64,000 nucleotides of DNA from positions 558,001 through 622,000 of the forward strand of contig CP120457.1 of the NCBI GenBank assembly GCA_034226945.1, written 5' to 3'. The stretch is from Picochlorum sp. SENEW3. Its lineage: Eukaryota. Each line of letters opens with the position of its first letter. The first letter of the stretch is position 1. A program made the position numbers and the translations under genes. Under the pieces are notes generated by a model that saw only the letters and a program-made list of their open reading frames with translations, had not been told where the DNA came from and did not search any database. This document shows, piece by piece, positions 43,101-63,581 of this stretch.

Positions 43101-44199
43101 GTACTTGGGGAACGAAAAGGCACTCACCTGACTCTCAGACGAGCTTCGATTATCAACACTACCCCATGTATCAGGATACGTCAACAGATCCAGTGACACC
43201 CCAGCAATATTGAGACTCGTACTTGAAATTCTCTCTAACGATTTCTTTGACATGAAGAATGTTGGAAGGGCAACCATCGCATCAGTCCACGAGCCAAACC
43301 GAATATCTTCATCCTGAATATCAAACGACGATATCTTCTCTTTCGTGACCGGCTCCAACAGCACCCTCCTCAACGACAGACATACGCCATCCCGACCAGA
43401 GTACTTGCACTGCGATGGCCTGGGTCCTGGCTCACCATGTTGCATATAATACATAGACGTATTCGCTAATTCCACATGAACACATTGAATCGCAAACTGA
43501 ATAATTCCATACAAGACAGAGCTCTTCATCTGATCAATATACCCTCCAATAAGCGGAATACTATACCCACGCCGCACTGGGTCCTGGCTAGACACACCCC
43601 ACAGCACCTCATCAATAAGCCGCAACGCCCTCTGCCTCTCACTCAACGCCAAATTTTCTCTTTCCTTCTTCTTCTTCACATGACAGACATCCTCCTGCAC
43701 CCATAATATATATGTAAATGAGTATCACACATGTGCATCCTCATGGTGGCTGAATTCATCCCACCTTTTCAGCTGGAGACATCCACATCTGCTGCGCAGA
43801 TACCCTCGTCCCACGAAGAACCAATCGAATAGGCTCCTTCCACGACGGCACCGACAGTTCCACAGAATCCACCCGAACATCAGTCACCTGTGTCCCCATC
43901 CCATACAGCATCTCTAGTATACTCTTCTTCACAACCACCTCATGGGCCGTGATCCGACCCTCCTCTTCATACACCAACCCTTCCTTATACCCATCACTCA
44001 CTCGTCGAATCAACGCCCCCATCCCCATCACCAACACCCGCTGAATCATTCTAAACCTCTTGGCAACAACCACCCCCACCGCCCCCACTGCTGTGCTGAC
44101 TACCGCCAACACAGCAGAATAATACATCAAAACTATCAATATATGAATCATGATGATGAAAATACCCACAACAAAGCTCAGACCCTCTATATCATACAC
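28108..44199 (-). CDS. VPS13: Giant VPS13-like bridge lipid-transfer protein with C2 domains (~8 exons)
   Basis: Co-linear long ORFs (43756-44199, 39369-43700, 38395-39558, 37767-38309, 35895-37694, 31200-35879, 28108-31203) separated by short intron-like gaps. Features include WEPLLSPW, PYRIEN...PYAWDEP (VAB/SHR-BD-like), two C2-like regions, LQLDNQ, a Gly-rich C-terminal ATG2_C-like region and a PH-like tail. Exon limits are approximate. Confidence 0.85.
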
Positions 44200-44872: not shown

Positions 44873-45598
44873 TCAGAGGTGCCATGATGCCATGGAGACC
44901 AGGGCCACCATCCACAGTCCCACCAAGCTCTGTGAGCCTAGCACAGGAGAAGCATTGCTGGTCTCGCTATTCTGCAGATCGCTGTCAAATTCCGACATGC
45001 TCACGCGGCCATCACCGTCAGCGTCCATTTGGGACATGATCTGGTCTGCTGTCATGCCCACTGCAGTGCAGTTGAGGGTGGAGCAGATCTCGCCGGATGT
45101 CAGCACGCTGTTTGCATCGGTATCAAAGCATCCGAGCCAGTCCTTGATCTGCTGGGGCTCGGTCAGAGACGAGGCGTTATACTTGGCCACCACGCCATTC
45201 AGGCAAGTCTGTGTGGAGGCTCTGAAAGGTGAGGCTGTGGTGCTGTCAGCCATCGTATCAGTGATGGACCCTTGGGAATTTGACGCCAACAACTGCCTTC
45301 TCCGTTGCCTGATCCCATACTTTTCGCAGTACTCCTGAGGACGGCGAAAAGTTTCTCCCCCAGGGCTTTGACGACACCCTCCGGCACAGTTGCATCCGAA
45401 GATATTACACGATCCCTTCCCGCAGTACCACCCTGAAACAATTGTGCAATCACGACAGATTTTCTTGCAGGATGGAATATATGATGGGGGACAACGTAAC
45501 GGATATTCATAAGGTTTGCAGCAGTCTGCGCGGCAGTGCTTCACTGCAGCGAGTGCGAGAACTGCACACAACAGCCACGTATCACTGAGACGCATCAT
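44873..45598 (-). CDS. Family A copy 1: secreted Diedel-like Cys domain + RxLL + 2 EF-hands + GPI-like tail
   Basis: Signal peptide; 12-Cys domain with YCGKGSCNIFGCNCAGGC; RRRQLL; EF loops DTDANSVLTSGE and DADGDGRVSMSE; hydrophobic C-terminus. Confidence 0.85.
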   Translation of the reverse strand: MMRLSDTWLLCAVLALAAVKHCRADCCKPYEYPLRCPPSYIPSCKKICRDCTIVSGWYCGKGSCNIFGCNCAGGCRQSPGGETFRRPQEYCEKYGIRQRRRQLLASNSQGSITDTMADSTTASPFRASTQTCLNGVVAKYNASSLTEPQQIKDWLGCFDTDANSVLTSGEICSTLNCTAVGMTADQIMSQMDADGDGRVSMSEFDSDLQNSETSNASPVLGSQSLVGLWMVALVSMASWHL

Positions 45599-45938
45599 GT
45601 GATCGAATTTATCTTCTTTTCAAAAACAGATGATTGAATTTGTATTTTTTGACCCGGCTTTTGTGGGGCCGGTTCGCAGGTTGTGCTTCGCCTAGATAAG
45701 GGATTGTGGAGGGGCAATCCCTTCGTATGGGAGGCCCGATGGGATGGACGCAAAGATAGGCTAGGTTACGTCACTAGACGTCCGTCATCTGATCGGGCCT
45801 TCCATCGAGCCGGATCGATTGGCAGGAATCTTGCACGAGGGCACGCCTCTTCAAAATCAACAATTCACGGAGACTGGAAAATAGAAAAAGATATTTGCTT
45901 TGTGGTTGGATCCAACAAATTTGTCGCAAAAACCTAGC

Positions 45939-46448
45939 ATGAATTTCTTGGCCTTATCTACGCTCTTGCTGCTTGTAACGCTGCAAAACACCCAAGCCCG
46001 TTCTTGCGTGGTCGGAGTGGATAAAATCGATATTGATAATTTGGATTATGAATATGGATCGCGCAAACTTCTCCCAAAATTCTGCCCGAAGGAGAAGTTT
46101 GAAGAGATGTCGCCACAAAAGGCAACCACTCAGCAGAGGAGTGAATCATTTGAGATGGTATCGGCGGCATTGAAACGCTTTAACGACGACACCAAAGAAG
46201 GGAGATGTGCGTATGGATTTGCGGAGGTCAATGTGCTTGACGGAGTTGGTTGTCGTTTGAAACCAGGCCAGAAGATGGATATGGGAACCAAAACCTATAC
46301 AGCCACCAGGCCAAGCTCGTCAAGTGGCCGAAGCAATGGGTATGCCAAAAAGTCAGTTGTCGTAGAATATACCTGCCTTGGAAACGTTGGAAATAAACGT
46401 TATGTGGCTCTGGCGTACGATGCCAAGTTCACGACGAAATGTATGTAA
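45939..46448 (+). CDS. Small secreted 6-Cys protein of unknown family
   Basis: Signal peptide MNFLALSTLLLLVTLQNTQA, then a basic mature region with 6 Cys. Intronless. Confidence 0.7.
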   Translation: MNFLALSTLLLLVTLQNTQARSCVVGVDKIDIDNLDYEYGSRKLLPKFCPKEKFEEMSPQKATTQQRSESFEMVSAALKRFNDDTKEGRCAYGFAEVNVLDGVGCRLKPGQKMDMGTKTYTATRPSSSSGRSNGYAKKSVVVEYTCLGNVGNKRYVALAYDAKFTTKCM

Positions 46449-47076
46449 GTTGTCCATGAGCAAGCATTACTCAAGCAGGCCACAACTGTGGTACCTGGTC
46501 ACCAGAATGGACTTCACTCTCTTGTGTGAACCATTTGTATAATGCGGCGCCTGAGTGCATCATACAATGATCTCCACAATGTTGCGTACTTTTTTTTTCT
46601 CGTTGTAATATACGGCCTTCGTTTTTATTGTTTAGATTTGATGTATCCTGATCGGGGTTACAGCAACGATCGACCAAATATTCATGGATATTGCTGATCA
46701 GCACGGGAGAGTCCACATTAGTCCAGTCATCACCATGTTGACTGCCACCTACAGAACACTTTTTTCGGCCTGATGAGGCATTTTGTCAAACCAGAGAGGC
46801 TTTTCTAGAGAAATTTGACGGGAACCCCAGAAAGTCGCACATTATCACCTATCCACGCCATGCTACGATTGCGTGAATTTGAATCTGTCATTCTCAATGA
46901 CATCATCCAGCGCTTGTTACATAATTATGTAGAAGGAATCATTTGAACGACGTTTTACGTACTTTATGTCTCAAATGAGGATGATATATACAGGGTTTGA
47001 TGCATGATACACCTCTTGTTTCAGATTCTTGGCTGCCCCTGTGCACAGCACAAAGGAGGGAACAATGGTATTGCAC

Positions 47077-47907
47077 TCACAACAGAAAGAGAACGGCAGT
47101 AGCAAAGATCGAGGCGAAAGCACCACCGATGGAACGTATGCCAGAGCCTGGAGGTGGATTTGGAGATGAATCCAGAGATGGGCTAGGTGATGGCCAATCT
47201 GTCCTTGGGTCACGCAACAAGAGACCAGTTGAAGGGAAGAATACCTGGGAGCTCTCTCCGTCGGGAGAAGAACAAGTAATAGGAGGTAGAACAGTGACGT
47301 TGTTGACCGATCCAGCAATAGAAATACCACGGGGGTTGGCATCATCAGTCTCAAGCAACGTAGCTGGAGAGCCATCAACTTCAAACCTCAAGGTACCTCC
47401 AGCAATATCCGTCGCAACCTTCGCATCCTCTCCTTCAACTGTGGCAATATGCCTCGAGAGAATAGAGGCCAAGAGATCAGTGTCACCCAACAATTCTTCA
47501 GCCGTCATGTTGAAACTGTCTTGAGCAACATAATACAGATCATCAAAAGCACTATCCATGGGGATGATGACCACCAAGTTTCCTTCTGGGGCATCACCAA
47601 TGTCAACATTTGCGGTGGCGTTAAAAATAGCAGAGAGATTCGAAAAGGATGGAGCAGCCAAAATTTCATATGCTTCGGCACAGAGAGGGATCTCTCCAAT
47701 GGTGGTGGCTCCAACTCCACACATCAGGGCTACAGGGCAAAATTCAATGGTGTCACACCGATCGCAACCGAATACGCGTCGGCCTCTGCGATATCGCCGA
47801 CAATTATGTACTCGCGGGATATATACGCCTTGGGCAACACAAACTCCGCCCGGAGTGCAGATTCGTCACGCACCCAACGTCAACAAAGCCACGGATTCTT
47901 TCATCAT
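47077..47907 (-). CDS. Fasciclin (FAS1)-like, probably GPI-anchored surface protein, 2 exons
   Basis: Spliced signal peptide MMKESVALLTLALMCGVGA (intron 47730-47873). FAS1-like motifs VVIIPMDSAF and LLASILSRH, a Pro/Ser stalk and a hydrophobic C-terminus. Confidence 0.65.
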
Positions 47908-48588
47908 GCAACCGGTTTGCAACAATGTCCTTGAGAGTCTGGCTCGATAGTGTAGGAAAATGCAAAATCTTTTGAGTCTTGTTGTATGTGAGCCCATGCG
48001 CTGCTCCAGACAGACTCATGTATACATGTATGGATGCAAGGTTCTGGATAGGTGCGTAATTTGCCAGGGTCGAAACATCACGCAAATTGGTGCTTTTATA
48101 AAAAACTAATTGGTGACGTAACCTAGCCTACTTTTGCGTCCGTCATCTGATCGGGCCTTCCATCGAGCCGGATCGATTGGCAGGAATCTTGCACGAGGGC
48201 ACGCCAGCAACCCTGGTGCGGAATATTGTTATTGAAAAGATAAACTATATATTTGTTTTTCAATTGTGTCTTGGGCAAAGAAACCATCCATAAAGGCGCG
48301 TTCTTTGATGTGTCGTTACGCACGCAGGCGTGTGGGCTTCTGTCCTGGTAGTGTTGTTGAGCAGCAATTGGACCCCATCATTGGGGTATTGCTGTCTTAT
48401 GTTTCAAATATAACATACACATGATATGATACGATCGTACTTGATTGCTTCGTTGCTTGTGATTGCAGATTCTCGCTCACTCGCACGGTCTGCAATACAA
48501 CCAAGGGTGAGAAGGACGTTGAGAAAAGGACACCGCGGCAGAGATCAGGCATCGGCTCTTCGACCAGAAGATTCGACAGTGATACGAT

Positions 48589-49530
48589 ATGAGCAGTCCC
48601 TACCCGGCACAAGGTGATGGCGACAAGGATGGGCCCACGCCTGGACTGGGAAAGTCCTCCCCCAGGCCGGCCCTAGTGGCATATGAGAAGGGTGATACTG
48701 TGGTGGACGTGGAGTCATTGCTCCGCTCCTGCAGCGCCAATGGTCTGTCTGCAAAGCTGACTGACCGCATCCGGGAGGCGGATGTGGACCGGGACGGTGT
48801 GCTGTCTGTGGACGAGCTTGTGGAGGTGATGCGGCGCGAGATGCAGGCGGTGTCCGACCGGAAGCTGTTCCGCAACATCCTGATTGCCCTATTCGTGGCG
48901 GTGCTGGTGCTGATTGCAACTCTATGTGGCACAGTGTATGCTATCGTGGACTTGAGCAAGGAGGTGAAGAACGACAACGGTGTGCTGGTATCCTCGTCTT
49001 CTGGGGATGTCATGGCCACTGGGACCGCCCAACAAACGGTGACGGTTGGTCCAGAGCTACTGAGCCTTCTGGAGTTTCCGGAATCATTGATTAATGCGCA
49101 ATCGGTGATCATTCCCACCACGGCAGGCGGTAAGGCCACAACTTTGGTATACAAGGTTGCCAAAATAACCTCGTCTCCTGAGATGGGCTCCATGGAGGTC
49201 CTCACCCTGGATGGCACGACCTTGCTCACGAATCAGTCGGGGATGTACGAGCAATCGGGCGGTGGTGAGTATCTTCCTGTGTTTGAGCTGGTTGAAAGCC
49301 GACGTAGGCTGCTGATCGACAGCGTTGGGATGCCGGAAACCCAAGGAGCGCCAAGCGTGGTTGTGCAAGCAAGCTCAGGTACTGGTGTTCTACCTGGGTA
49401 TTCACCTCTATCTACTGAATGCTTCAGCTGCATCCAAAATTGCAGAAACAAATATAATCGTGACCGATCATTGGATTGGTCAGAGTACGTAGATTGCATG
49501 GATAGGTGCAAAACAGATTACTGTTACTGA
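48589..49530 (+). CDS. Family B copy 1: EF-hand + TM + luminal domain + RRRLL + Cys-rich peptide
   Basis: EF loop DVDRDGVLSVDE; TM NILIALFVAVLVLIATLCGTVYAIV; SRRRLL; C-terminal CFSCIQNC...CMDRC...C. Confidence 0.85.
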   Translation: MSSPYPAQGDGDKDGPTPGLGKSSPRPALVAYEKGDTVVDVESLLRSCSANGLSAKLTDRIREADVDRDGVLSVDELVEVMRREMQAVSDRKLFRNILIALFVAVLVLIATLCGTVYAIVDLSKEVKNDNGVLVSSSSGDVMATGTAQQTVTVGPELLSLLEFPESLINAQSVIIPTTAGGKATTLVYKVAKITSSPEMGSMEVLTLDGTTLLTNQSGMYEQSGGGEYLPVFELVESRRRLLIDSVGMPETQGAPSVVVQASSGTGVLPGYSPLSTECFSCIQNCRNKYNRDRSLDWSEYVDCMDRCKTDYCY

Positions 49531-51144: not shown

Positions 51145-52179
51145 TCAATCAATACAGTTGTACTGCTTGCCAAGGTTCAGAGCGGACTGGTAATCTCCTG
51201 GACGCCCATAGTTCACGCACCCATCCCACAAAGGATGGTTGAATAAAATCCTATATTGTCGGAACTTTTCGCAAATACAAGAGGTTTGTGAAACGTCCAT
51301 GGCAGAGGGTCCAATTTCTAGACACCAGTTAACCCCTGATATAAGATAGTTGCAGGAAAACCCTAAAATACCACTACTATCGCTTGTCACGTCTCCCGTT
51401 GTCCCCATATCCATGACAATGGTTGCTCCGCTGTGTCCAGGTACCCCATCATCACCCTCGCTCATCAGTTTTCTGCGGCGATTACCGTCCGACAAGAGCA
51501 AAGGACTGTAATTATTGTCGCCTTCATCAGAAATCTTGTACACTCCCGACTGGTTCATAAAGAGGGTCGTGCCGTCCACGGTGTTGACCTCCAATGTGCC
51601 TGTGCTGGGAAATGCCGTCATCTTGCCAACCTTGTACACGGTAGTCTTGCCACCGTCGACGGTAGGAATGACCACCGAGTGCGCTTTGCTCAGTGATGAT
51701 GGGAAATTAAGCATGCTCAGTAGCTCTGGACCAACCGTCACCGTTTGTTGGGCGGTCCCAGTGGCCATGACATCCCCAGAAGACGAGGACACCAGCACAC
51801 CGTTGTCGTTCTTCACCTCCTTGCTCAGGTCGATGATGGCATATACCGTGCCGCACAGCGTGGCCACCAGCACCAGCACCGCCGCGAACAGAGCGATCAG
51901 GATGTTGCGGAACAGCTTGCGATCTGAGACCGCCTGCATCTCTGTGCGAATCACCTCAATGAGCTCGTCCACAGACAGAGCGCCATCGTGATCCACATCC
52001 GCCTGCCGGATACGCTCAGCCACTTTGGGGGATAAGCCCTTCATGCTGCAAGAACGCAACAGGGCATCCACATCCACCACGACATTGCCATGCTCGTTTG
52101 ACAAGGTGGGCGAGGTGGGGAATGATTTTAGTCCAACTTCTACGGGGACATCGCCATGTCCATTGTCTTCGTTTCCCAT
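51145..52179 (-). CDS. Family B copy 2 (inverted, divergent)
   Basis: EF loop DVDHDGALSVDE, the same TM, RRRKLM, and a different 6-Cys C-terminal peptide. ATG at 52179. Confidence 0.85.
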   Translation of the reverse strand: MGNEDNGHGDVPVEVGLKSFPTSPTLSNEHGNVVVDVDALLRSCSMKGLSPKVAERIRQADVDHDGALSVDELIEVIRTEMQAVSDRKLFRNILIALFAAVLVLVATLCGTVYAIIDLSKEVKNDNGVLVSSSSGDVMATGTAQQTVTVGPELLSMLNFPSSLSKAHSVVIPTVDGGKTTVYKVGKMTAFPSTGTLEVNTVDGTTLFMNQSGVYKISDEGDNNYSPLLLSDGNRRRKLMSEGDDGVPGHSGATIVMDMGTTGDVTSDSSGILGFSCNYLISGVNWCLEIGPSAMDVSQTSCICEKFRQYRILFNHPLWDGCVNYGRPGDYQSALNLGKQYNCID

Positions 52180-52782
52180 CTTCTTCGTTGCGTTGTGCTG
52201 TCTAGCGTGTCCTGTCTGCTGGATGTTTGTGTTGTAGTTTTTCACGTTCCCTTGTCCTGGATGGCCGACCGTGCGAACGCGAGAATTTCTGCACAACAGG
52301 AAGGTCACCGTGAAATACGCGCATAAAAGATAGACCTATGAAAGAATTGGCGACTTGCGTGCCAAACCTTTGGTACAGCGCGATGCAGGCCATGGCCACG
52401 TGCACAGCGGCAGCTCGAAAGAACTCACCTTTCCAGGGAAGTCGCGGTTCACTGCCACGAAAGTAAGATCCTTTTTTGTGTATTATAGTTGATTTTTTTT
52501 TCGTATGAGGTCAGGACCAAGCAGTGCTGGCTGAATGCGTAATCTTCCCGGGTCGAGGGGATGACGCAAAGGCCCACAGGCCGGAGTTCGAGTAACGTAA
52601 CCTTGTCATGTTGGTCGGACATGCCTGTCCAAACAGACCTTTCATGGGAGAATCGTGAGGTTCTGCGAACGTGCCCTACTAGCGGCGAAGAAGAAGAGCA
52701 AACTGTCAGAGTTGTGGTGAAGACTCCCATCAAACCAATCATGATTTTGTCTTCAAATTAGTATAGGTATTATTATCATTAG

Positions 52783-53538
52783 ATGATGATGCGTGTCGGC
52801 GAGATGGGGTTGTTCTGTGCTGCTCTCGCACTCGTGGTGCGAGGCTCACAGGCGGATTGCTGCTATCATTATTCCTACTCCATTTTTATTTGCCCGAAAA
52901 GTTCATTTCCACGCCGAGGTAGTATGTGCATATCCGAGTGGTCTGTCTGCCTGGACTGCACAAAAACCAACTATTGGTACTGTGGGAAGGGACCATGCAA
53001 CATATTTGGGTGCAACTGTGACGGAGGGTGTCGCGAAAGGCCAGTTGGAGAGACAGGCAAACCTCAGGAATATTGCGCCAGGCACGGCCTTCCACCTACA
53101 AACATGAAGAGCAAGCGACTCCTGATGGCGTCAGATAGCAAGATGTCTTCGAGTGACGCAGCCCTGATGATGACTGACAACTCCACAGCCTCACCTTACA
53201 GTGCTTCCACACAGGCCTGCCTGGATGGCGTGGTGGCCAAGTACAACGCCTCCTCTCTCACTGAGCCCCGGCAGATCAAGGACTGGCTTGGCTGTTTTGA
53301 CGCCGATGCAAACAGCATGCTCTCCTTGGACGAGATCTGCTCCACCCTCAACTGCACCGCATTGGGCATGACAGCAGACCAGATCATGTCACAGATAGAT
53401 ACTGATGGTGATGGCATCGTGAGCATGTCAGAGTTTGACAGCGACCTGCAGGGATTTGAGACCAGCAATGCTCGGTCTGTGCTGCTTGTCAGCTGGAGTT
53501 TGATGGGCTCATGGCTGGTGACCCTGGTGGCATGGTGA
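52783..53538 (+). CDS. Family A copy 2 (inverted, divergent)
   Basis: Signal peptide; 12-Cys domain with YCGKGPCNIFGCNCDGGC; KSKRLL; two EF-hands; hydrophobic tail. Confidence 0.85.
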   Translation: MMMRVGEMGLFCAALALVVRGSQADCCYHYSYSIFICPKSSFPRRGSMCISEWSVCLDCTKTNYWYCGKGPCNIFGCNCDGGCRERPVGETGKPQEYCARHGLPPTNMKSKRLLMASDSKMSSSDAALMMTDNSTASPYSASTQACLDGVVAKYNASSLTEPRQIKDWLGCFDADANSMLSLDEICSTLNCTALGMTADQIMSQIDTDGDGIVSMSEFDSDLQGFETSNARSVLLVSWSLMGSWLVTLVAW

Positions 53539-53996: not shown

Positions 53997-54890
53997 ATGG
54001 AGAAGGCTACCCAGTCTACCCACAGACACGCAGCCTTGGTCCCAGCAGCAGAAGAAAACGCTGTGGATCTAGCAACGAAACATGCGGGAAGGAAGGTATG
54101 GTTGATCAAGGTACCAGAATTTGTAGCCAAGGAGTGGAGGCGTGCCTGTCACGACACGACATCCTCTGCCCCCAGAAAACCTTCTCAGCAGGATGATCCC
54201 GCCGATGATAATGGTCTCACAACAGAAGACCAACAACATAAACAAAAACCGGACAGAACCACGGCGACGATGCGGCAGCAAGGCGAGTCTCCCGTCATCT
54301 TGGGCACATTGTCCATTGGGCAGGGTGTCACCTTGCGTTTATCTGATTCGTTCGAGGGGACCAAGGAGCTTCCAAAGGAATACAACCTCGTGAATAATGC
54401 TCGAGCTGGGCCATCCATGATGGTCTTCTCGGACGATGGGGATGGACTGTACAGGTCTGTTGAAGGTATTGTCCAACACCGGTTGGATGTGAATGCTCGT
54501 GATATTCAGGATGCGTATCGGCGGGTGTCGAGGGAGCGATTTAAACGAGAAGCGGAAGGAGGGTCTCGGAAGAAGCGCACGGTCAAGATGATGACGGATA
54601 GTAAGATTATTGATATTAGAAAGCCAGTGGGGGCTGTGCAGAAGAAGAAAGAGCGCAAGGATACCTTGTTATTAGAGAAGCGGGTTGCCATGGATAAAAA
54701 GGAATTGCTTCCTGTTTTATTTCGGTTGTTCCAGAGACAATCTCAATGGACGTTTACGCAGTTGCAAAAGGAGACGAATCAGCCAACCCAGCATTTGAAG
54801 ATTGTGTTGGGGGAGATTGCAATGCAGAATAAGGCTGGCCCATACAAGGACATGTGGGAATTAAGCAAGGAGAGCAAAGTGCATGTGTAA
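53997..54890 (+). CDS. GTF2F2: Transcription initiation factor IIF beta subunit (RAP30)
   Basis: Motifs KVWLIKVPEFVAKEW and LPKEY, plus the winged-helix LF.LF....WT..QL...TNQP...LK.VL.EI...NK.GP....WEL. Confidence 0.9.
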   Translation: MEKATQSTHRHAALVPAAEENAVDLATKHAGRKVWLIKVPEFVAKEWRRACHDTTSSAPRKPSQQDDPADDNGLTTEDQQHKQKPDRTTATMRQQGESPVILGTLSIGQGVTLRLSDSFEGTKELPKEYNLVNNARAGPSMMVFSDDGDGLYRSVEGIVQHRLDVNARDIQDAYRRVSRERFKREAEGGSRKKRTVKMMTDSKIIDIRKPVGAVQKKKERKDTLLLEKRVAMDKKELLPVLFRLFQRQSQWTFTQLQKETNQPTQHLKIVLGEIAMQNKAGPYKDMWELSKESKVHV

Positions 54891-54999
54891 TAATTATTTG
54901 GTATGTATGTAATATCGTAGTCGTAGTAGGTATATGGATGATGCCGGACATGATGGTAGCGAGGCTACCAGGAATTCGACAAGGAGGCCTTTGGGGAGA

Positions 55000-55162
55000 C
55001 TGACTGCCGCCAACACAGCAGAATAATACATCAAAACTGTCAGTATATGAATCATCATGATATGAAAATACCCACAACAAAGCTCAAACCCTCTATATCA
55101 TACACGAGTCGTGAGAAGAAACACCAAACCGGTACAAAGAGAACAACACAGTGGTGCTGATG
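55000..55162 (-). pseudogene. Duplicated 5' fragment and upstream region of the VPS13-like gene (also ~58152-58314 and ~61306-61468)
   Basis: Matches ~44096-44256 (ccgccaacacagcagaataatacatcaaaact...cacagtggtgctgatg). Confidence 0.85.
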
Positions 55163-55305
55163 GGATCTCATTGCCATCCACCCTATATACACATCAAGGA
55201 GGACCGGACAGGTCGTGCATCACCCGGCACTAGATCAAAGTGATTCAAAACCTGGAAACGAGGCATACCTGCAAAAGAGCATGCTCGGAGGCAATCTGAA
55301 AACCA

Positions 55306-56025
55306 TCAGAGGTGCCATGATGCCATGGAGACCAGGGCCACCATCCACAGTCCCACCAAGCTCTGTGAGCCTAGCACAGGAGGAACATTGCTGGTCTCGC
55401 TATTCTGCAGATCGCTGTCAAATTCCGACATGCTCACGCGGCCATCACCGTCAGCGTCCATTTGGGACATGATCTGGTCTGCTGTCATGCCCACTGCAGT
55501 GCAGTTGAGGGTGGAGCAGATCTCGCCGGATGTCAGCACGCTGTTTGCATCGGTATCAAAGCATCCGAGCCAGTCCTTGATCTGCTGGGGCTCGGTCAGA
55601 GACGAGGCGTTATACTTGGCCACCACGCCATTCAGGCAAGTCTGTGTGGAGGCTCTGAAAGGTGAGGCTGTGGTGCTGTCAGCCATCGTATCAGTGATGG
55701 ACCCTTGGGAATTTGACGCCAACAACTGCCTTCTCCGTTGCCTGATCCCATACTTTTCGCAGTACTCCTGAGGACGGCCTCTTACTACCCAATGGCTTTG
55801 ACGACACCCTCCGGCACAGTTGCATCCGAAGATATTACACGATCCCTTCCCGCAGTACCACCCTGAAACTCTTGTGCAATCACGACAGATAAACTGGCAA
55901 GATTCAATAAGGTCGTCACAACCGAACGGATATTCATAAGGTCTGCAGCAGTCTGCGCGGCAGTGCTTCACTGCAGCGAGTGCGAGAACAGCACAAAACA
56001 GCCACGTATCACTGAGACGCATCAT
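55306..56025 (-). CDS. Family A copy 3
   Basis: Near-identical to A1 except in two loops of the Cys domain (PFGCDDLIESCQF; SHWVVRGRP). Confidence 0.85.
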   Translation of the reverse strand: MMRLSDTWLFCAVLALAAVKHCRADCCRPYEYPFGCDDLIESCQFICRDCTRVSGWYCGKGSCNIFGCNCAGGCRQSHWVVRGRPQEYCEKYGIRQRRRQLLASNSQGSITDTMADSTTASPFRASTQTCLNGVVAKYNASSLTEPQQIKDWLGCFDTDANSVLTSGEICSTLNCTAVGMTADQIMSQMDADGDGRVSMSEFDSDLQNSETSNVPPVLGSQSLVGLWMVALVSMASWHL

Positions 56026-56644
56026 GTGATCAGATTTATCTTCTTTTTCTTCTTTTCAAAAACAAATACCCTTGAATTTGTATTTTTTGACCCGGCTTTT
56101 GTGGGGCCGGTTCGCAGGTTGTGCTTCGCCAAAGGGATTGTGGAGGGGCAATCCCTTCGTATGGGAGGCCCGATCGGATGGACGCAAAGGTAGGCAAGGT
56201 TACGTCACTAGACGTCCGTCATCTCATCCGGCCTTCCATCGAGCCGGATCGATTGGCAGGAATCTTGCACGAGGGCACGCCAGCAACCCTGGCGCGGAAT
56301 ATTGTTATTGAAAAGATAGACTATATATTTGCTTTCCAGTTTTGTTCTGGGCAAATAAGCCATCCATAAAGGCGCGTTCTTTGATGTGCCGTTACGCACG
56401 TAGGCGTGTGGTAGTGTCGTTGAGCAGCAACTGGACCTAATCATCGGGGTATTATTGCTGTCTTTTGTTTCAAATATAATATATACATGATAGTAATTGA
56501 TTGCTTCGTCGCTTGTGATTGCAGATTCTCGGTCACTCGCACCGTCTGCAATACAACCAAGGGTGAGAAGAACATTGAGAAAAGGACACCGCGGCAGAGA
56601 TCAGGCATTGGCCCCTGGACCAGACGATTCGACAGTGGTACGAT

Positions 56645-57598
56645 ATGAGCAGTCCCTACCCGGCACAAGGTGATGGCGATAAGGATGGGCCCACGCCTGG
56701 ACTGGGAAAGTCCTCCCCCAGGCCGCCCCCAGTGGCATACGAGAAGGGTGATACCGTGGTGGACGTGGAGTCATTGCTCCGCTCCTGCAGCGCCAAGGGC
56801 CTGTCTGAAAAGCTGACTGACCGCATCCGGGAGGCGGATGTGGACCGGGACGGTGTGCTGTCTGTGGACGAGCTTGTGGAGGTGATGCGGCGTGAGATGC
56901 AGGCGGTGTCCGACCGCAAGCTGTTCCGCAACATCCTGATTGCCCTATTCGTGGCGGTGCTGGTGCTGATTGCAACTCTATGTGGCACAGTGTATGCTAT
57001 CGTGGACTTGAGCAAGGAGGTGAAGAATGACAATGGGGTGCTGGTATCCTCGTCCTCTGGTGATGTCATGTCAACAGGCTCTGCCCAGCAGACGGTGACG
57101 GTTGGTCCAGAGCTGCTGGCTCTGCTCGACTTCCCCGAATCCCTCAGCAATGTTCACTCATTGGTTATTCCTGCCATGGAAGGTGATGAGACGACGGTGT
57201 ACAAGACTGCGAAACTCATCTCGTCGCCTGGCACAGGTTCCATGAATATTGCCACAGTGGACGGCACACTGCTGCTCATGAACCAGTCTGGCGTGTACGA
57301 GCGCTCCGAGTCCGATGGATACGTCCCTATATTTGAAATGTCTGATCGCCGCCGTAAGCTGCTGATCGACAGAGTCGAGGGACCAGGTTCCCAAGGAGCA
57401 CCAAGTGTGGTTGTGAGCATGGCATCTGGTCCTGTACGCCCCAGATACAGATGGGGCCCATGCCTCTATAGAGGGTTTAAGGCTCTTTGTTATAAATCGT
57501 GCTATCGTCGTTACGATTGGAACACCGTTGAGGTCAGTGATTGTCAGGGGCGATGTGATAAAAAATATGATTGTGGCCTCGACAGTACTTTGCAGTAA
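56645..57598 (+). CDS. Family B copy 3
   Basis: EF-hand, TM, RRRKLL, and C-terminal C...CYKSC...CQGRC...C. Confidence 0.85.
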   Translation: MSSPYPAQGDGDKDGPTPGLGKSSPRPPPVAYEKGDTVVDVESLLRSCSAKGLSEKLTDRIREADVDRDGVLSVDELVEVMRREMQAVSDRKLFRNILIALFVAVLVLIATLCGTVYAIVDLSKEVKNDNGVLVSSSSGDVMSTGSAQQTVTVGPELLALLDFPESLSNVHSLVIPAMEGDETTVYKTAKLISSPGTGSMNIATVDGTLLLMNQSGVYERSESDGYVPIFEMSDRRRKLLIDRVEGPGSQGAPSVVVSMASGPVRPRYRWGPCLYRGFKALCYKSCYRRYDWNTVEVSDCQGRCDKKYDCGLDSTLQ

Positions 57599-57931
57599 TC
57601 AACAGCAACAAGTGCATACAGACTGCGCAGGGCATGCTGTTGGTTGTGAAGACATCATCCAAGCAGGAATGCAATCAATTGCAGCGCACCCAAACCGAAA
57701 ATATTAACAATACCAAATACTGATACTAGTGGGTATTGTTAAATAATACTTGTACAGATATGAAACATTGGTACATGAAATTGCTTGTATTCTCTGAAAT
57801 GCCATCAACATGGATGGATGCCACAAAGGGCATGTTTGATGCTAAAAAACACTGGCCAAACTAATCAATCCAGAACCAGGACACAATCCAACCAATGCTC
57901 ATTGTAATCAAAATATAGCAGAACCACCAAG

Positions 57932-58036
57932 CAACCCAGCATTTGAAGAGTGTTGGGGGAGATTGCAATGCAGAATAAGGCTGGCCCATACAAGGACATG
58001 TGGGAACTAAGCAAGGAAAGCAAAGTGCACGTGTAA
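57932..58036 (+). pseudogene. Duplicated 3' fragment of the TFIIF beta gene (second copy at 61098-61202)
   Basis: Matches 54784-54890 (...cagaataaggctggcccatacaaggacatgtggg...gtgtaa) with small indels. Confidence 0.85.
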
Positions 58037-58457
58037 TAATTATTTGGTATGTATGTAATATCGTAGCAGTAGTAGTAGTAGGTATATGGATGATGCTGGA
58101 CATGATGGTAGCGAGGCTACCAGGAATTCGACAAGGAGGCCTTTGGGGAGACTGACTACCGCCAACACAGCAGAATAATACATCAAAACTATCAGTATAT
58201 GAATCATGATGATATGAATATACCCACACAAAAGCTCAGACCCTCTATATCATATACGAGTCGTGAGAAGAAACACCAAACCGGTACAAAGAGAACAACA
58301 CAGTGGTGCTGATGGGATCTCATTGCCATGCACCCTATATGCACATCGAGGAGAACCGGATAGGTCGTGCATCACCCGGCACTAGATCAAAGTGATCCAA
58401 AACATGGAAACGAGGCATACCTGCAAAAGAGCATGCTCAGAAGCAATCTGAAAACCA

Positions 58458-59186
58458 TCAGAGGTGCCATGATGCCATGGAGACCAGGGCCACCATGCAC
58501 AGTCCCACCAAGCTCCATGATCCCAGCACAGGAGGAGCATTGCTGGTCTCGCTATTCTGCAGATCGCTGTCAAATTCCGACATGGTCACGCGGCCATCAC
58601 CATCAGCGTCCATTTGGGACATGATCTGGTCTGCTGTCATGCCCACTGCAGTGCAGTTGAGGGTGGAGCAGATCTCGCCGGATGTCAGCACGCTGTTTGC
58701 ATCGGTATCAAAGCATCCGAGCCAGTCCTTGATCTGCTGGGGCTCGGTCAGAGACGAGGCGTTATACTTGGCCACCACGCCATTCAGGCAAGTCTGTGTG
58801 GAGGCTCTGAAAGGTGAGGCTGTGGTGCTGTCAGCCATCGTATCAGTGATGGACCCTTGGGAATTTGACGCCAACAACTGCCTTCTCCGTTGCCTGATCC
58901 CATACTTTTCGCAGTACTCCTGAGGACGGCGAAAAGTTTCTCCCCCAGGGCTTTGACGACACCCTCCGGCACAGTTGCATCCGAAGATATTACACGATCC
59001 CTTCCCGCAGTACCACCCTGAAACTCTTGTGCAATCACGACAGATTTTCTTGCAGGATGGAATACGTGGGGGATATAGACAACGTAACGGATATTCATAA
59101 GGTTTGCAGCAGTCTGCGCGGCAGTGCTTCACTGCAGCGAGTGCGAGAACTGCACACAACAGCCACGTATCACTGAGACGCATCAT
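58458..59186 (-). CDS. Family A copy 4
   Basis: Near-identical to A1, with variable loop CLYPPRIPSC. Confidence 0.85.
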   Translation of the reverse strand: MMRLSDTWLLCAVLALAAVKHCRADCCKPYEYPLRCLYPPRIPSCKKICRDCTRVSGWYCGKGSCNIFGCNCAGGCRQSPGGETFRRPQEYCEKYGIRQRRRQLLASNSQGSITDTMADSTTASPFRASTQTCLNGVVAKYNASSLTEPQQIKDWLGCFDTDANSVLTSGEICSTLNCTAVGMTADQIMSQMDADGDGRVTMSEFDSDLQNSETSNAPPVLGSWSLVGLCMVALVSMASWHL

Positions 59187-59814
59187 GTGATCGAATTTAT
59201 CTTCTTTTCAAAAACAGATGATTGAATTTGTATTTTTTGACCCGGCTTTTGTGGGGCCGGTTCGCAGGTTGTGCTTCGCCTAGATAAGGGATTGTGGAGG
59301 GGCAATCCCTTCGTATGGGAGGCCCGATGGGATGGACGCAAAGATAGGCTAGGTTACGTCACTAGACGTCCGTCATCTGATCGGGCCTTCCATCGAGCCG
59401 GATCGATTGGCAGGAATCTTGCACGAGGGCACGCCAGCAAACCCTGGCGCGGAATATTGTTATTGAAAAGATAGACTATATATTTGTTTTCCAATTTTGT
59501 TGTGGGCAAACAAGCCATCCATAAAGGCGCGTTCTTTGATGTGTGTCGTTACGCACGCAGGCGTGTGGGCTTCTGTCCTGGTAGTGTTGTTGAGCAGCAA
59601 GTGGACCCCATCATTGGGGTATTATTGCTATCTTTTGTTTCAAATATAATATATACATGATAGTAATTGATTGCTTCGTCGCTTGTGATTGCAGATTCTC
59701 GGTCACTCGCACCGTCTGCAATACAACCAAGGGTGAGAAGAACATTGAGAAAAGGACACCGCGGCAGAGATCAGGCATCGGCTCTTCGACCAGAAGATTC
59801 GACAGTGATACGAT
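59187..59814. promoter_or_regulatory. Putative bidirectional promoter between A and B (homologs at 56026-56644; split at 45599-45847 + ~48137-48588)
   Basis: Conserved ~620 bp spacer between divergent start codons. It contains ttacgtca (TGACGTAA on the opposite strand, CRE/bZIP-like). Confidence 0.6.
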
Positions 59815-60720
59815 ATGAGCAGTCCCTACCCGGCACAAGGTGATGGCGATAAGGATGGGCCCACGCCTGGACTGGGAAAGTCCTCCCCCAGGCCGGCCCT
59901 AGTGGCATATGAGAAGGGTGATACTGTGGTGGACGTGGAGTCATTGCTCCGCTCCTGCAGCGCCAAGGGCCTGTCTTCAAAGCTGACTGACCGCATCCGG
60001 GAGGCGGATGTGGACCGGGACGGTGTGCTGTCTGTGGACGAGCTTGTGGAGGTGATGCGGCGCGAGATGCAGGCGGTGTCCGACCGGAAGCTGTTCCGCA
60101 ACATCCTGATTGCCCTATTCGTGGCGGTGCTGGTGCTGATTGCAACTCTATGTGGAACAGTGTATGCGATCGTGGACTTGAGCAAGGAGGTGAAGAACGA
60201 CAATGGGGTGCTGGTATCCTCGTCCTCTGGTGACGTGATGGCCACAGGGACAGCCCAGCAAACGGTGACGGTTGGTCCAGAGCTGCTGGCTCTGCTCGAC
60301 TTCCCCGAATCCCTCAGTAATGTTCACTCACTGGTCATTTCTGCCATTGGAGGCGATGAGACGACGGTGTACAAGATTGCGAAACTCATCTCGTCGCCTG
60401 GCACAGGTTCCATGAATATTGCCACAGTGGACGGCACAATGCTGCTCGTGAACCAGTCTGGCGTGTACGAGCGCTCCGAGCCCGATGAATACATGCCTGT
60501 ATTTGAAATGTCTGATAGCCGTCGTAAGCTGCTGATCGACAGTGTCGAGCGACCAGGTTCCCAAGGAGCTCCAAGTGTGGTTGTGAGCGTGGGATCTGGT
60601 CCCATAACACCCAGATACAGCCCATGCGTCAATTGTTATAAAGCGTGCTATGATAATTACGGAAACGCTGTTGATGTCAGTGATTGTCACGGGCGATGTC
60701 GTAAAACACATTATTGTTGA
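59815..60720 (+). CDS. Family B copy 4
   Basis: EF-hand, TM, SRRKLL, and C-terminal CVNCYKAC...CHGRC...C. Confidence 0.85.
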   Translation: MSSPYPAQGDGDKDGPTPGLGKSSPRPALVAYEKGDTVVDVESLLRSCSAKGLSSKLTDRIREADVDRDGVLSVDELVEVMRREMQAVSDRKLFRNILIALFVAVLVLIATLCGTVYAIVDLSKEVKNDNGVLVSSSSGDVMATGTAQQTVTVGPELLALLDFPESLSNVHSLVISAIGGDETTVYKIAKLISSPGTGSMNIATVDGTMLLVNQSGVYERSEPDEYMPVFEMSDSRRKLLIDSVERPGSQGAPSVVVSVGSGPITPRYSPCVNCYKACYDNYGNAVDVSDCHGRCRKTHYC

Positions 60721-61611
60721 TCAACAGTACTTTGCTGTAATCAACAGCAACAAGTGCATACAGACTGCGCAGTGCATGCTGTTGATTGTGAAGACACCAT
60801 CCAAGCAGGAATGAAATCAATTGCAGCGCACCCAAACCGAAAAAGTTAACAATACAAAATACTAATACCAGTGGGCATTGTGAATATTAATAATAATACT
60901 TGTTCAAAAAACCATGTAGATATGAAACATTTGTACATGATGCTACTTGTATTCTCTGAAATGCCATCAACATGGATCCCACAAAGGGCATGTTTGATGC
61001 TAAAAAACACTGGCCAAACTAATCAATCCAGAACCAGGACACAATCCAACCAATGCTCATTGTAATCAAAATATAGCAGAACCACCCACCCACCAAGCAA
61101 CCCAGCATTTGAAGTGTGTTGGGGGAGATTGCAATGCAGAATAAGGCTGGCCCATACAAGGACATGTGGGAATTAAGCAAGGAGAGCAGAGTGCATGTGT
61201 AATAATTATTTGGTATGTATGTAATATCGTAGTAGGTATATGGATGATGCTGGACATGATGGTAGCGAGGCTACCAGGAATTCGACAAGGAGGCCTTTGG
61301 GGAGACTGACTACCGCCAACACAGCAGAATAATACATCAAAACTATCAGTATATGAATCATGATGATATGAATATACCCACAACAAAGCTCAGACCCTCT
61401 ATATCATGCACGAGTCGTGAGGAAAAACACCAAACCGTTACAAAGAGAACAACACAGTGGTGCTGATGGGATCTCATTGCCATGCACCCTATATGCACAT
61501 CGAGGAGAACCGGATAGGTCGTGCATCACCCGGCACTAGATCAAAGTGATTCGAAACCTGAAAACGAGGCATACCTGCAAAAGAGCATGCTCGGAGGCAA
61601 TCTGAAAACCA

Positions 61612-62050
61612 TCAGAGGTGCCATGATGCCATGGAGACCAGGGCCACCATCCACAGTCCCACCAAGCTCTGTGAGCCTAGCACAGGAGGAACATTGCTGG
61701 TCTCGCTATTCTGCAGATCGCTGTCAAATTCCGACATGCTCACGCGGCCATCACCGTCAGCGTCCATTTGGGACATGATCTGGTCTGCTGTCATGCCCAC
61801 TGCAGTGCAGTTGAGGGTGGAGCAGATCTCGCCGGATGTCAGCACGCTGTTTGCATCGGTATCAAAGCATCCGAGCCAGTCCTTGATCTGCTGGGGCTCG
61901 GTCAGAGACGAGGCGTTATACTTGGCCACCACGCCATCCAGGCAAGTCTGTGTGGAGGCACTGAAAGGTGAGGCTGTGGTGCTGTCAGCCATCGTATCAG
62001 TGATGGACCCTTGGGAATTTGACGCCAACAACTGCCTTCTCCATTGCCTG
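61612..62050 (-). pseudogene. Family A copy 5, 5'-truncated (signal peptide and Cys domain missing)
   Basis: Homology to family A ends at ~62050, just upstream of the (W)RRQLL site. The EF-hand/GPI half is intact. Confidence 0.75.
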
Positions 62051-62630
62051 GTTTTAGGCCTAAGTGGCAATCATGTATACATATGTATATATATAGGCCC
62101 ACAGTTCTGGATAGGAGCGTAATCTGCCGGGGTCGGAACATCACGCAAATTGGTGTTGCTAGTGACGTAACCTAACCTACTTTTGCGTATGTCATCTAGA
62201 TGATATCTCGTGCGAAAATTGCATTCATAATTCATACTCATAAACACCGCTATTCTCCGATAAAAAAATTATTTCGAATAGTGTGAAATAGTTCAATACA
62301 ATTGTCGGGAAAGATTCAGGCTTTCCTTCAGGCGAAATTTATTCTTTTTAGGCGGAACGGTCCTAAGTTCTAGGTTTGTTGGGCACGAGTACGTGTTTCG
62401 CTAGGTGGGCTACTGTGGGATTGGGTTTGTGCGGGTTCATGGAAATTATACACTTTTAAAAGTACATCATTAATTAAATACAGCAGAACACTCTGAATGA
62501 CTGTTGTTACAGCACGCTGCCATTGTCCTTCTGGCCTATTCAGGCCCTCTGCGCATACCAAAACCAAATAGAATTCGTGTCTTTCTTCAGCCGTATTCAA
62601 TCAATCTTCTGGCGGTTTGTGCAGGACGAG

Positions 62631-63581
62631 ATGCAAGATAAGGAGGCTGCAATTGACGAAGGGGTGGTGGACGTGGAGTTGCTGCTGCAGAATGGGGCCA
62701 TCCCACCCAAGCTGGCAGACCGCATACGAGCAGCGGATGCCAATCAGGATGGGCGCCTCTCAGTGCTGGAGCTGGTGGAGGTGATGCGCAGAGAGCAGAA
62801 GGCGGTTGAGGACCGCAAGCTATTCCGTAACATAATGTTGGCCCTTCTCGTTGCCGTGCTGGTGCTGATTGCTACGCTGTGTGGCACAGTCTACGGCATT
62901 GTCAAGCTGACGCAGGAGGTGAATGACCAGGATGGTTTGCTGGTGTCAGCCTCCACTGGAGAGGTGATGGGCACAGGACTGGCACAGGAACCACTCCCTT
63001 TATCTCGCCTGTATCGTTTCGGTGACTCCTCCGAGTTGAGAAATGTGGAGAGTGTCATTGTCGCCTCGAAGCCGGACGAAGGCAGTGCTGATGGCAGTGA
63101 GGAGGTGCAAATGTTTCGAGTATCCAAAATCAGCGCAGTGCCGAACGTGCGCGCCACGGTATACACAGTCGACGGCAGCAAGCTAGAGGTAGACGACACA
63201 GGTGTGCGTGTGGTGGACCAGGATAATGACGTCACGCAGTCTTCTGGTGGCAGAAGACTTTCTGAGACTGCTCCTGTGCAGACTGGAGGGGACGGCACTG
63301 TGCCAGTTGACGCCTATGTGGTTGCCAACATCTCACCCCGTTCAAATGGATGCGACTCTAGTTTGGTAAACAGTTATAAGTGGTGCTTTGACAACTACTC
63401 GAGTGATAGTGACATAGCGCGTTGTCAAGCACGTGCCCAGCAAAGGTATCAGGAATGCAATGCAACCTCTTGCGACAGTTCCAGTTATATGCGAGCATAT
63501 AAGTGGTGTTTGGACAACTACTCGGGTGACAGTGACATAGCGGGTTGCCAAGCAAGAATGCGGGAAAGGTATAACTGTTAA
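62631..63581 (+). CDS. Family B copy 5 (divergent; duplicated C-terminal peptide)
   Basis: EF loop DANQDGRLSVLE, TM, GGRRLS, and two tandem 4-Cys units. ATG at 62631; an upstream exon is possible because gtgcag lies just before it. Confidence 0.8.
   Translation: MQDKEAAIDEGVVDVELLLQNGAIPPKLADRIRAADANQDGRLSVLELVEVMRREQKAVEDRKLFRNIMLALLVAVLVLIATLCGTVYGIVKLTQEVNDQDGLLVSASTGEVMGTGLAQEPLPLSRLYRFGDSSELRNVESVIVASKPDEGSADGSEEVQMFRVSKISAVPNVRATVYTVDGSKLEVDDTGVRVVDQDNDVTQSSGGRRLSETAPVQTGGDGTVPVDAYVVANISPRSNGCDSSLVNSYKWCFDNYSSDSDIARCQARAQQRYQECNATSCDSSSYMRAYKWCLDNYSGDSDIAGCQARMRERYNC
63351..63578 (+). repeat. Internal coding tandem duplication (120-nt period) in B5
   Basis: CDSS...YKWC.DNYS.DSDIA.CQAR...RY..C occurs twice, starting at 63351 and 63471. 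Confidence 0.9.

Follow-up and report, generated by a model that had tools for sequence, protein, structure and literature searches.

We analysed 64,000 nucleotides (nt) of Picochlorum sp. SENEW3 (contig CP120457.1, positions 558,001 to 622,000; hereafter the window) and find that a tandem gene family near its end, family A, encodes proteins in which a Diedel-like cysteine-rich domain is fused to a pair of EF-hands. Three copies of this family, A1, A3 and A4, are almost identical outside two short loops of the Diedel-like domain. Our preferred explanation is that the tandem family evolves in concert while copy-specific loops are kept against homogenisation, probably tuning binding; we put its probability at about one half. 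The region singled out in a preliminary description of the sequence, 55770-55950, is the cysteine-rich domain of A3 and lies on the minus strand. The features that enter the comparison, in window positions, are as follows.

44873-45598, minus strand: A1 gene, 241 amino acids (aa), with loop 1 at 45461-45499 and loop 2 at 45338-45367.
55306-56025, minus strand: A3 gene, 239 aa, identified from its open reading frame (ORF), Pfam Diedel, PDB 3ZZO and calmodulin matches, and sequence features.
55750-55950, minus strand: Diedel-like domain of A3, about residues 26-92, with 12 cysteines (coordinates computed from residue numbers).
55891-55926, minus strand: loop 1 of A3, FGCDDLIESCQF, residues 34-45, net charge -3.
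55771-55797, minus strand: loop 2 of A3, SHWVVRGRP, residues 77-85, between the GGC motif and the next helix.
55411-55638, minus strand: EF-hand pair of A3, with loops DTDANSVLTSGE and DADGDGRVSMSE (Pfam, phmmer and sequence).
58458-59186, minus strand: A4 gene, 242 aa, with loop 1 at 59046-59087 and loop 2 at 58923-58952.

Between A1 and A3, 30 of 63 loop nt differ, compared with 7 of 654 elsewhere in the coding sequence (Fisher p=6.7e-29). For A4 and A3 the corresponding counts are 28/63 and 11/654 (p=3.5e-24), and for A1 and A4 they are 6/69 and 10/654 (p=0.002). The loops make up 63 of the 717 aligned nt (9%) yet hold 30 of the 37 substitutions that separate A1 from A3 and 28 of the 39 that separate A4 from A3, i.e., 72-81%, and every gap base between the three copies falls inside them. 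Across the tail, EF-hands and linker, A1 differs from A3 at 2/465 nt and A4 from A3 at 8/465, with no difference between A1 and A3 in the 122 linker and EF-hand codons. The core between the loops, which lie 93 nt apart, is free of differences between A4 and A3. Comparison of the repeat units carrying A3 and A4 (units 3 and 4) in blocks of 50 columns reveals no mismatches in 55478-55777 and 55825-55874, and 7 mismatches plus 3 gaps and 13 plus 6 in the two loop blocks. The near-identity of the EF-hand half noted in the preliminary description is thus borne out, and divergence, once the copies are aligned, is clustered in the loops rather than uniform.

Loop 1 lies in the hairpin that links the CC motif to C-x-D-C. 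It reads LRCPPSYIPSCKK in A1, FGCDDLIESCQF in A3 and LRCLYPPRIPSCKK in A4, the copies differing by substitutions and in-frame indels, and the strings previously quoted for it are correct. Its net charge is +3 in A1 and +4 in A4 versus -3 in A3, in agreement with the earlier remark that it turns from basic to acidic in A3. Also as described, every full copy from A1 to A4 retains all 12 cysteines of the N-terminal domain, and the A3 ORF is intact. Loop 2, between GGC and the following helix, is SPGGETFRRP in both A1 and A4, SHWVVRGRP in A3 and RPVGETGKP in the older paralog A2. Here the preliminary description gave the A1 and A3 sequences correctly but assigned to A4 the sequence that belongs to A2.

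Self-BLAST reveals that the final 20 kb of the window is a tandem array with a repeat unit of about 3.15 kb, in which 54784-58896 and 57932-62050 are 92.6% identical across 4176 aligned columns. By tblastn, the window holds four full copies and one truncated copy of family A, together with five copies of a second family, B, which encodes membrane proteins; the two families are arranged head-to-head, every B being divergently paired with an A. Similarity is discordant along these genes. In the 3' half of the gene, A3 is the copy closest to A1 (the 2/465 above), yet the 5' flank of A1 matches that of A4 without a difference (0/245), A3 being 4.5% different from A1/A4 there. In family B, the proportion of synonymous differences (pS) between B1 and B3/B4 is 0.03-0.09 in codons 1-120 versus 0.45-0.95 in the outer part of the protein. 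The discordant segments in A and the mosaic pS in B point to gene conversion, and we therefore find that gene conversion or repeated duplication homogenises the backbone, the loops remaining distinct. A contig from another sequencing run, X19, carries similar signs: 16 of the 23 differences from A3 that were listed equal the state of another window paralog, and five consecutive differences in its tail match A4 only.

The loops (45-48% divergence) are about ten-fold more divergent than the non-coding flanks, at 5.0-8.8% on the 3' side and 4.5% on the 5' side. This excess bears on the possibility that the loops are neutral and permissive, tolerating any sequence or length, drifting, and escaping conversion as their divergence blocks heteroduplex formation, with no copy-specific function. 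We regard such neutrality as possible but unlikely. The flanks themselves look neutral, and A1 and A4 differ by a complex change in loop 1 despite their identical 5' flanks, for which drift alone is insufficient.

Transitions and transversions in the loops stand at 6:24. Loop 2 of A3 differs from that of A1 by four single transversions and one CTTTTC-to-GAG deletion-insertion, and the codon listing of loop 1 displays a 12-to-9-nt block replacement and an AAA-to-TTT change. Inspected by eye, this listing fits neither a compensated frameshift as the origin of the loop changes nor an A3 loop that is an inversion of the A1 loop. The loops could instead have been imported as patches, either by short-tract conversion from divergent family members or by a single complex deletion-insertion repair, so that the pattern would be mainly mutational, an origin that could coexist with selection for retention of the loops. 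The ratio of 6:24 and the multi-nucleotide changes with 3-bp or 6-bp indels agree with such an import, as does the gene conversion active in the array; moreover, the array continues up to the edge of the window, B5 stopping at 63581, and the genus has divergent family members (P0001, A2). However, the 64-kb window contains no donor for the A3 loops, chance 11-mers being the only matches, and the A3 loops are unlike those of A2 and P0001. Import would also need two separate patches of 27-36 nt, 93 nt apart, with perfect identity between them, and we find it rather improbable as the main explanation. A mutational component in the loop changes is likely under any reading.

The A3 loops are found in contigs from other sequencing runs. 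The X1 contig covers 55861-55973 with 0 differences from the window, and the X15 contig, from a salt-lake metagenome, covers 55787-56146 across loop 1 with 4 differences in 359 nt. The X19 contig (1006 nt) covers 55110-56093 and thereby all of A3; over 984 nt it departs from the window by 28 substitutions and 14 gap letters. Among the 23 of its 28 substitutions that were listed, loop 1 accounts for two, both of which change the amino acid (G to R and D to E), and loop 2 for none; the loops could contain up to 5 further substitutions, and the 14 gap letters are counted without their location being displayed. An A3-type copy with nearly the same loops therefore exists in a relative diverged by about 4%. 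Polymorphism across strains had been proposed as a check on diversification, and what these three contigs display, loops of A3 type that are nearly unchanged, runs counter to it. We therefore consider the A3 loops to be stable copy-specific variants and not hypermutating complementarity-determining regions (CDRs). Two contigs of a further run, X12, also cross loop 1 (55807-55989), with 17 differences each; one of them is ungapped, has exactly the A3 length and may represent a further loop 1 variant.

Programmed or somatic hypermutation, akin to that of diversity-generating retroelements or immunoglobulins, has in its favour a superficially CDR-like look only. Neither a template nor a second copy of any loop occurs in the window, the changes affect all four bases rather than one base type, and contigs of three other runs carry identical or almost identical A3 loops. 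In addition, the four members of the P0041 cluster, alleles of one relative, differ at four scattered positions, none of them in the loops. We deem hypermutation highly improbable. The same contigs bear on whether repeat copies were mis-joined or mis-polished, given the difficulty of assembling tandem repeats that are 92-97% identical. Such an artefact is scarcely credible: loop 1 of A3 appears in other-run contigs with 0 (X1), 4 (X15) and 2 (X19) differences, the A1/A4-type loop 1 forms a separate branch in X1 (loose end at 55890), and all variants keep the reading frame and all 12 cysteines.

Family A proteins are small secretory-pathway proteins with a Diedel-like disulfide-knotted domain and predicted Ca2+-binding EF-hands. 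In A3, a signal-peptide-like N-terminus (hydrophobic 15-residue stretches starting at residues 4-9, ahead of the CC motif, as judged from sequence features) is followed by the Diedel-like domain, the EF-hand pair and a hydrophobic C-terminal tail. Pfam Diedel (PF13164) scores 34.0 bits for A3 and 28.7 bits for A2, above the gathering cutoff of 21.3, and the N-terminal half of A3 matches Drosophila Diedel CG11501 (PDB: 3ZZO) with E=5e-9. An AlphaFold2 model of A3, built from a 70-sequence alignment, has a mean predicted local distance difference test score (pLDDT) of 74.5, with 10-residue blocks in residues 21-90 at 78-94. The top two Foldseek matches of this model are 3ZZO and 3ZZR with a probability of 1.00, but with E=1.6e-3 and TM 0.42. 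VIA alignment to Diedel gives Z 5.1 and a root-mean-square deviation of 3.4 Å for 64 aligned residues, with model 23-93 placed on chain 25-100; the structural alignment stops at Diedel chain residue 100, before strand 109-113. The EF-hand pair comprises two canonical 12-residue Ca2+-binding loops, DTDANSVLTSGE and DADGDGRVSMSE. It matches calmodulins in phmmer at about 1e-7, and its lobes match calmodulin-type lobes with VIA Z 5-6, at Pfam EF-hand scores slightly below the gathering cutoffs. The tail (...SETSNVPPVLGSQSLVGLWMVALVSMASWHL) is hydrophobic, with small residues before it, and is compatible with a glycosylphosphatidylinositol (GPI) signal; we suggest that it may serve as a GPI-anchor signal or as a membrane anchor.

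The knot motif WYCGKGSCNIFGCNCAGGC is invariant in A1, A3 and A4 and aligns with Diedel residues 70-87 in the numbering of PMC3307722. The SD2 knot motif is C-G-x-G-x-C-N-I-F-G-C-N-C-x-G-G-C, with an exposed N-I-F tip; numbers given here are chain position + 24, as deduced from Asn77-Ile78-Phe79. According to the accessible part of PMC3307722, the conserved knot SD2 of Drosophila Diedel comprises residues 25-28 and 60-89, and the SD1 segments, 29-59 and 90-117, diverge. In the A3 model, loop 1 connects strand 29-31 to strand 43-45, and loop 2 is followed by helix 84-105. Pairwise alignment places loop 1 at or just past the flexible Diedel loop 51-54, with a six-residue insertion, and loop 2 at the SD2-helix junction 88-95. 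Drosophila Diedel binds integrins via an RGD motif, as stated in the accessible part of PMC9116668, and in the pairwise alignment with A3 this motif is outside the knot, within the first SD1 segment. The two loops are thus located in the family-wide variable part of the fold, which carries the one known binding motif, and their position suggests that they may be surface-exposed. We note that two of these structural observations also suit neutral, permissive loops: pLDDT in the loop 1 block is 78, lower than the 91-94 of the core, and the region of loop 1 is the main length-variable part of the Diedel family, the spacer from CC to C-x-D-[GC] that contains it spanning 8-58 residues in the 50 of 70 family sequences with both motifs.

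The pattern observed in the window recurs elsewhere. P0080 and P0081 are metagenome proteins from two different sources, 30-32% identical to A3. Their first 66 residues are identical at 65/66 positions and their last 133 at 133/133, and their Diedel domains differ by many substitutions and by indels of 8 residues (loop 1) and 26 residues (loop 2). To judge from these sequences, the pair is an independent replicate of the window pattern in another lineage. Variation at the same two positions, with 198/199 flanking residues identical, argues against neutral loops, as does the conservation of the A3 loops in the X19 contig, which suggests constraint.

Selection on the loops was evaluated by the Nei-Gojobori method, on about 14 synonymous sites. 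The proportion of nonsynonymous differences (pN) is 0.48-0.50 and pS is 0.32-0.41, giving pN/pS of 1.33 (p=0.37) and 1.52 (p=0.23); these ratios are non-significant and indistinguishable from 1, as neutral loops would have it. The 7 loop codons with a conserved amino acid contain 1 clean synonymous change, TCC/TCT. Besides the non-significant ratios, several further results weigh against copy-specific loops kept by selection. The loop pS is itself raised, mostly from multi-hit codons, and only three near-identical A sequences are available, with three states of loop 1 and two of loop 2. Loop 2 is partly conserved, P-x-G-E-T being common to A1/A4, A2 and the distant relative P0001, and therefore A3 alone departs there. 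The roughly ten-fold excess over the flanks exceeds what selection on point mutations usually yields, and the 6:24 ratio resembles replaced rather than gradually diverged sequence; together, these suggest that a mutational or patch-replacement component is probably needed. Moreover, A and B diverge without obvious covariation, A1 being close to A4 but B3 close to B4. We therefore hold selection on the loops to be plausible but unproven. Of the CDR-like diversification put forward in the preliminary description, the concentration of differences between fixed cysteines stands; the small number of states and the stability of the loops across runs do not support the remainder.

The explanation that we prefer, concerted evolution with copy-specific loops, would operate as follows. 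Gene conversion or very recent duplication would keep the A copies of the ~3.15-kb units almost identical. Loops 1 and 2, which flank the conserved knot, would be rewritten by clustered substitutions and in-frame indels, and, once rewritten, these loops would be kept as stable variants specific to each copy. They would most likely be kept because they form part of a binding surface and each copy recognises a different partner; with loops of this kind, we propose, partners would be copy-specific and loop homogenisation would be selected against.

Relatives of family A are readily recognised as Diedel proteins, 68/70 aligned sequences matching Pfam Diedel. A Pfam scan confirms the combination of Diedel with an EF-hand pair in P0001, P0041, P0021, P0043, P0056, P0062 and the L001 ORF. 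P0041 and P0080-P0082 align to A3 over 74-87% of its length; for P0080-P0082 the Diedel hit is precomputed and the other architecture, including the tail, was read from sequence. The relatives with both domains are 26-58% identical to the window proteins, with a far longer loop 1 in P0041 and P0082. The L001 ORF, L001:1273-2607(+), encodes 444 aa in a metagenome and joins a signal-like N-terminus, a Diedel domain and an EF-hand pair to a trypsin-like peptidase domain. P0004/P0079, of 1300 and 1541 aa, contain 9 Diedel-like stretches, so that proteins of quite another kind may have the knot motif in repeated form; one of the two is named 'Lectin C-type domain/Secretion system C-terminal sorting domain/HYR domain' in its source.

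Within the genus, the C-terminal half of A2 (residues 108-251) is identical at 141/144 positions to the gene model P0002, which carries the label Picre1. P0003 bears the name 'Calmodulin-like protein 5 [Picochlorum sp. SENEW3]', and both P0002 and P0003 are related to A2 and P0001. These models, from two Picochlorum genomes, start at an internal methionine and cover the EF-hand half only, so that their Diedel half may have escaped annotation. In viral contigs, scanning with the family A alignment gave 104 pattern matches, none of which was confirmed as a relative of family A. Metagenome contigs yielded no close relatives, the 10 loci found all being distant Diedel-like domains, and a search with A3 residues 1-100 among shorter proteins gave no candidate. 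The literature searches, judged by titles or the beginnings of abstracts and by passages of PMC8570155, brought up neither an algal Diedel nor a fusion of Diedel with EF-hands; by title, the papers found for Diedel with EF-hands all dealt with insects, and none of those listed for cysteine-rich proteins in Picochlorum was relevant.

Drosophila Diedel, the best fold match of the A3 model, is likewise a secreted cysteine-rich protein with the same SD2 knot, and the accessible part of PMC3307722 also places its divergence mainly outside SD2. The two nevertheless differ in several respects. Family A has 12 cysteines and C-x-D-C, while Drosophila Diedel has 10 and C-x-D-G, and the first SD1 segment of family A is much shorter, with 19-21 residues from CC to C-x-D-C. 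In family A the domain is joined to an EF-hand pair and a hydrophobic tail, the integrin-binding RGD of Diedel (PMC9116668, accessible part) is missing, and the host is apparently a green alga rather than an insect. Diedel homologues of baculo-, asco- and entomopoxviruses belong to the same Pfam family, according to the accessible parts of PMC3307722 and PMC8570155. Unlike family A, the viral homologues are insect-virus genes without EF-hands.

Among other systems, conotoxins and Brassica SCR/SP11 combine a fixed cysteine framework and conserved flanks with inter-cysteine loops that carry nearly all differences between paralogs or alleles, and for both dN/dS >1 and a binding role of the loops are established. 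Family A resembles them in its fixed-cysteine scaffold and in the location of its differences. It differs from them in having few variants, loops that are stable across related strains and a non-significant pN/pS.

The remaining members of the array are listed below.

54784-61100: two tandem repeat units, A3+B3 and A4+B4, about 3.15 kb each (self-BLAST).
52783-53538, plus strand: A2 gene, 251 aa, older paralog, with loop 1 at 52885-52944 and loop 2 at 53038-53064.
61612-62050, minus strand: A5, truncated copy with linker, EF-hand and tail only (tblastn).
48589-49530, plus strand: B1, partner of A1.
51145-52308, minus strand: B2, divergently paired with A2.
56645-57598, plus strand: B3, divergently paired with A3.
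59815-60720, plus strand: B4, paired with A4.
62523-63581, plus strand: B5, divergent B copy adjoining the truncated A5.

A2 and A3 are about 59-64% identical, depending on the alignment. Homology of A5 to the other A copies stops at 62050, with no Diedel-like exon seen upstream, and the copy is devoid of the cysteine-rich domain. The A5 junction recurs as loose ends in the X1 and X15 contigs, and the truncated form is therefore common to several samples. A1 and B1 are split by a 2.3-kb insertion (45848-48136). It contains two ORFs without a Pfam match, one at 45900-46448(+) encoding 182 aa with a hydrophobic N-terminus and one at 47077-47724(-) encoding 215 aa. The rest of the window, 1-43700, was viewed by eye; its long, mostly uninterrupted ORFs look housekeeping-like and fit a compact, intron-poor algal genome. 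Examples are an ORF resembling methionyl-tRNA synthetase at 26049-27641(-) and ORFs of very large size at 28108-43700(-).

The repeat unit has another divergence hot spot, located in family B. B3 consists of an N-terminal EF-hand, a single hydrophobic helix and an outer part that ends in a variable cysteine-rich module. This end (57399-57598 in B3, 60560-60720 in B4 and 49360-49530 in B1) shows 8-9 mismatches per 50 columns and a 24-column gap between units 3 and 4, and pN/pS between B3 and B4 is about 1.5 from codon 176 onward. The predicted structure of B3 has a mean pLDDT of 42.3, too low for use, and the ESM Atlas returned no usable match for its outer part. One may speculate that the A/B pairs form a polymorphic, Ca2+-dependent system of extracellular recognition, in which A would be a GPI-anchored or secreted ligand and B a type II membrane protein, both kept diverse against conversion, though we consider this doubtful. 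If it were true, specificity would reside in the two loops of A and the C-terminal cysteine-rich module of B, and the system could serve self/non-self, mating-type, anti-viral or anti-grazer recognition. P0080 and P0081, with the same variable positions, would then mark the system as one that extends more widely among protists and is akin to an insect cytokine.

A 2012 description, given in the accessible part of PMC3307722, had Diedel confined to a few insects and insect DNA viruses. The Diedel knot fused to an EF-hand pair is now present in a green picoalga and in several sequences from metagenomes and run assemblies, and copies identical except at two knot-flanking segments are seen in two independent lineages. 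The Diedel fold is thus found in a new fusion and a new host, and the mode of its evolution, a fixed cysteine scaffold with variable loops, is already familiar. If the loops set specificity, the array would provide a minimal alga with a small set of recognition proteins, secreted or at the surface, and the pattern would point to the recognising part of the Diedel fold.

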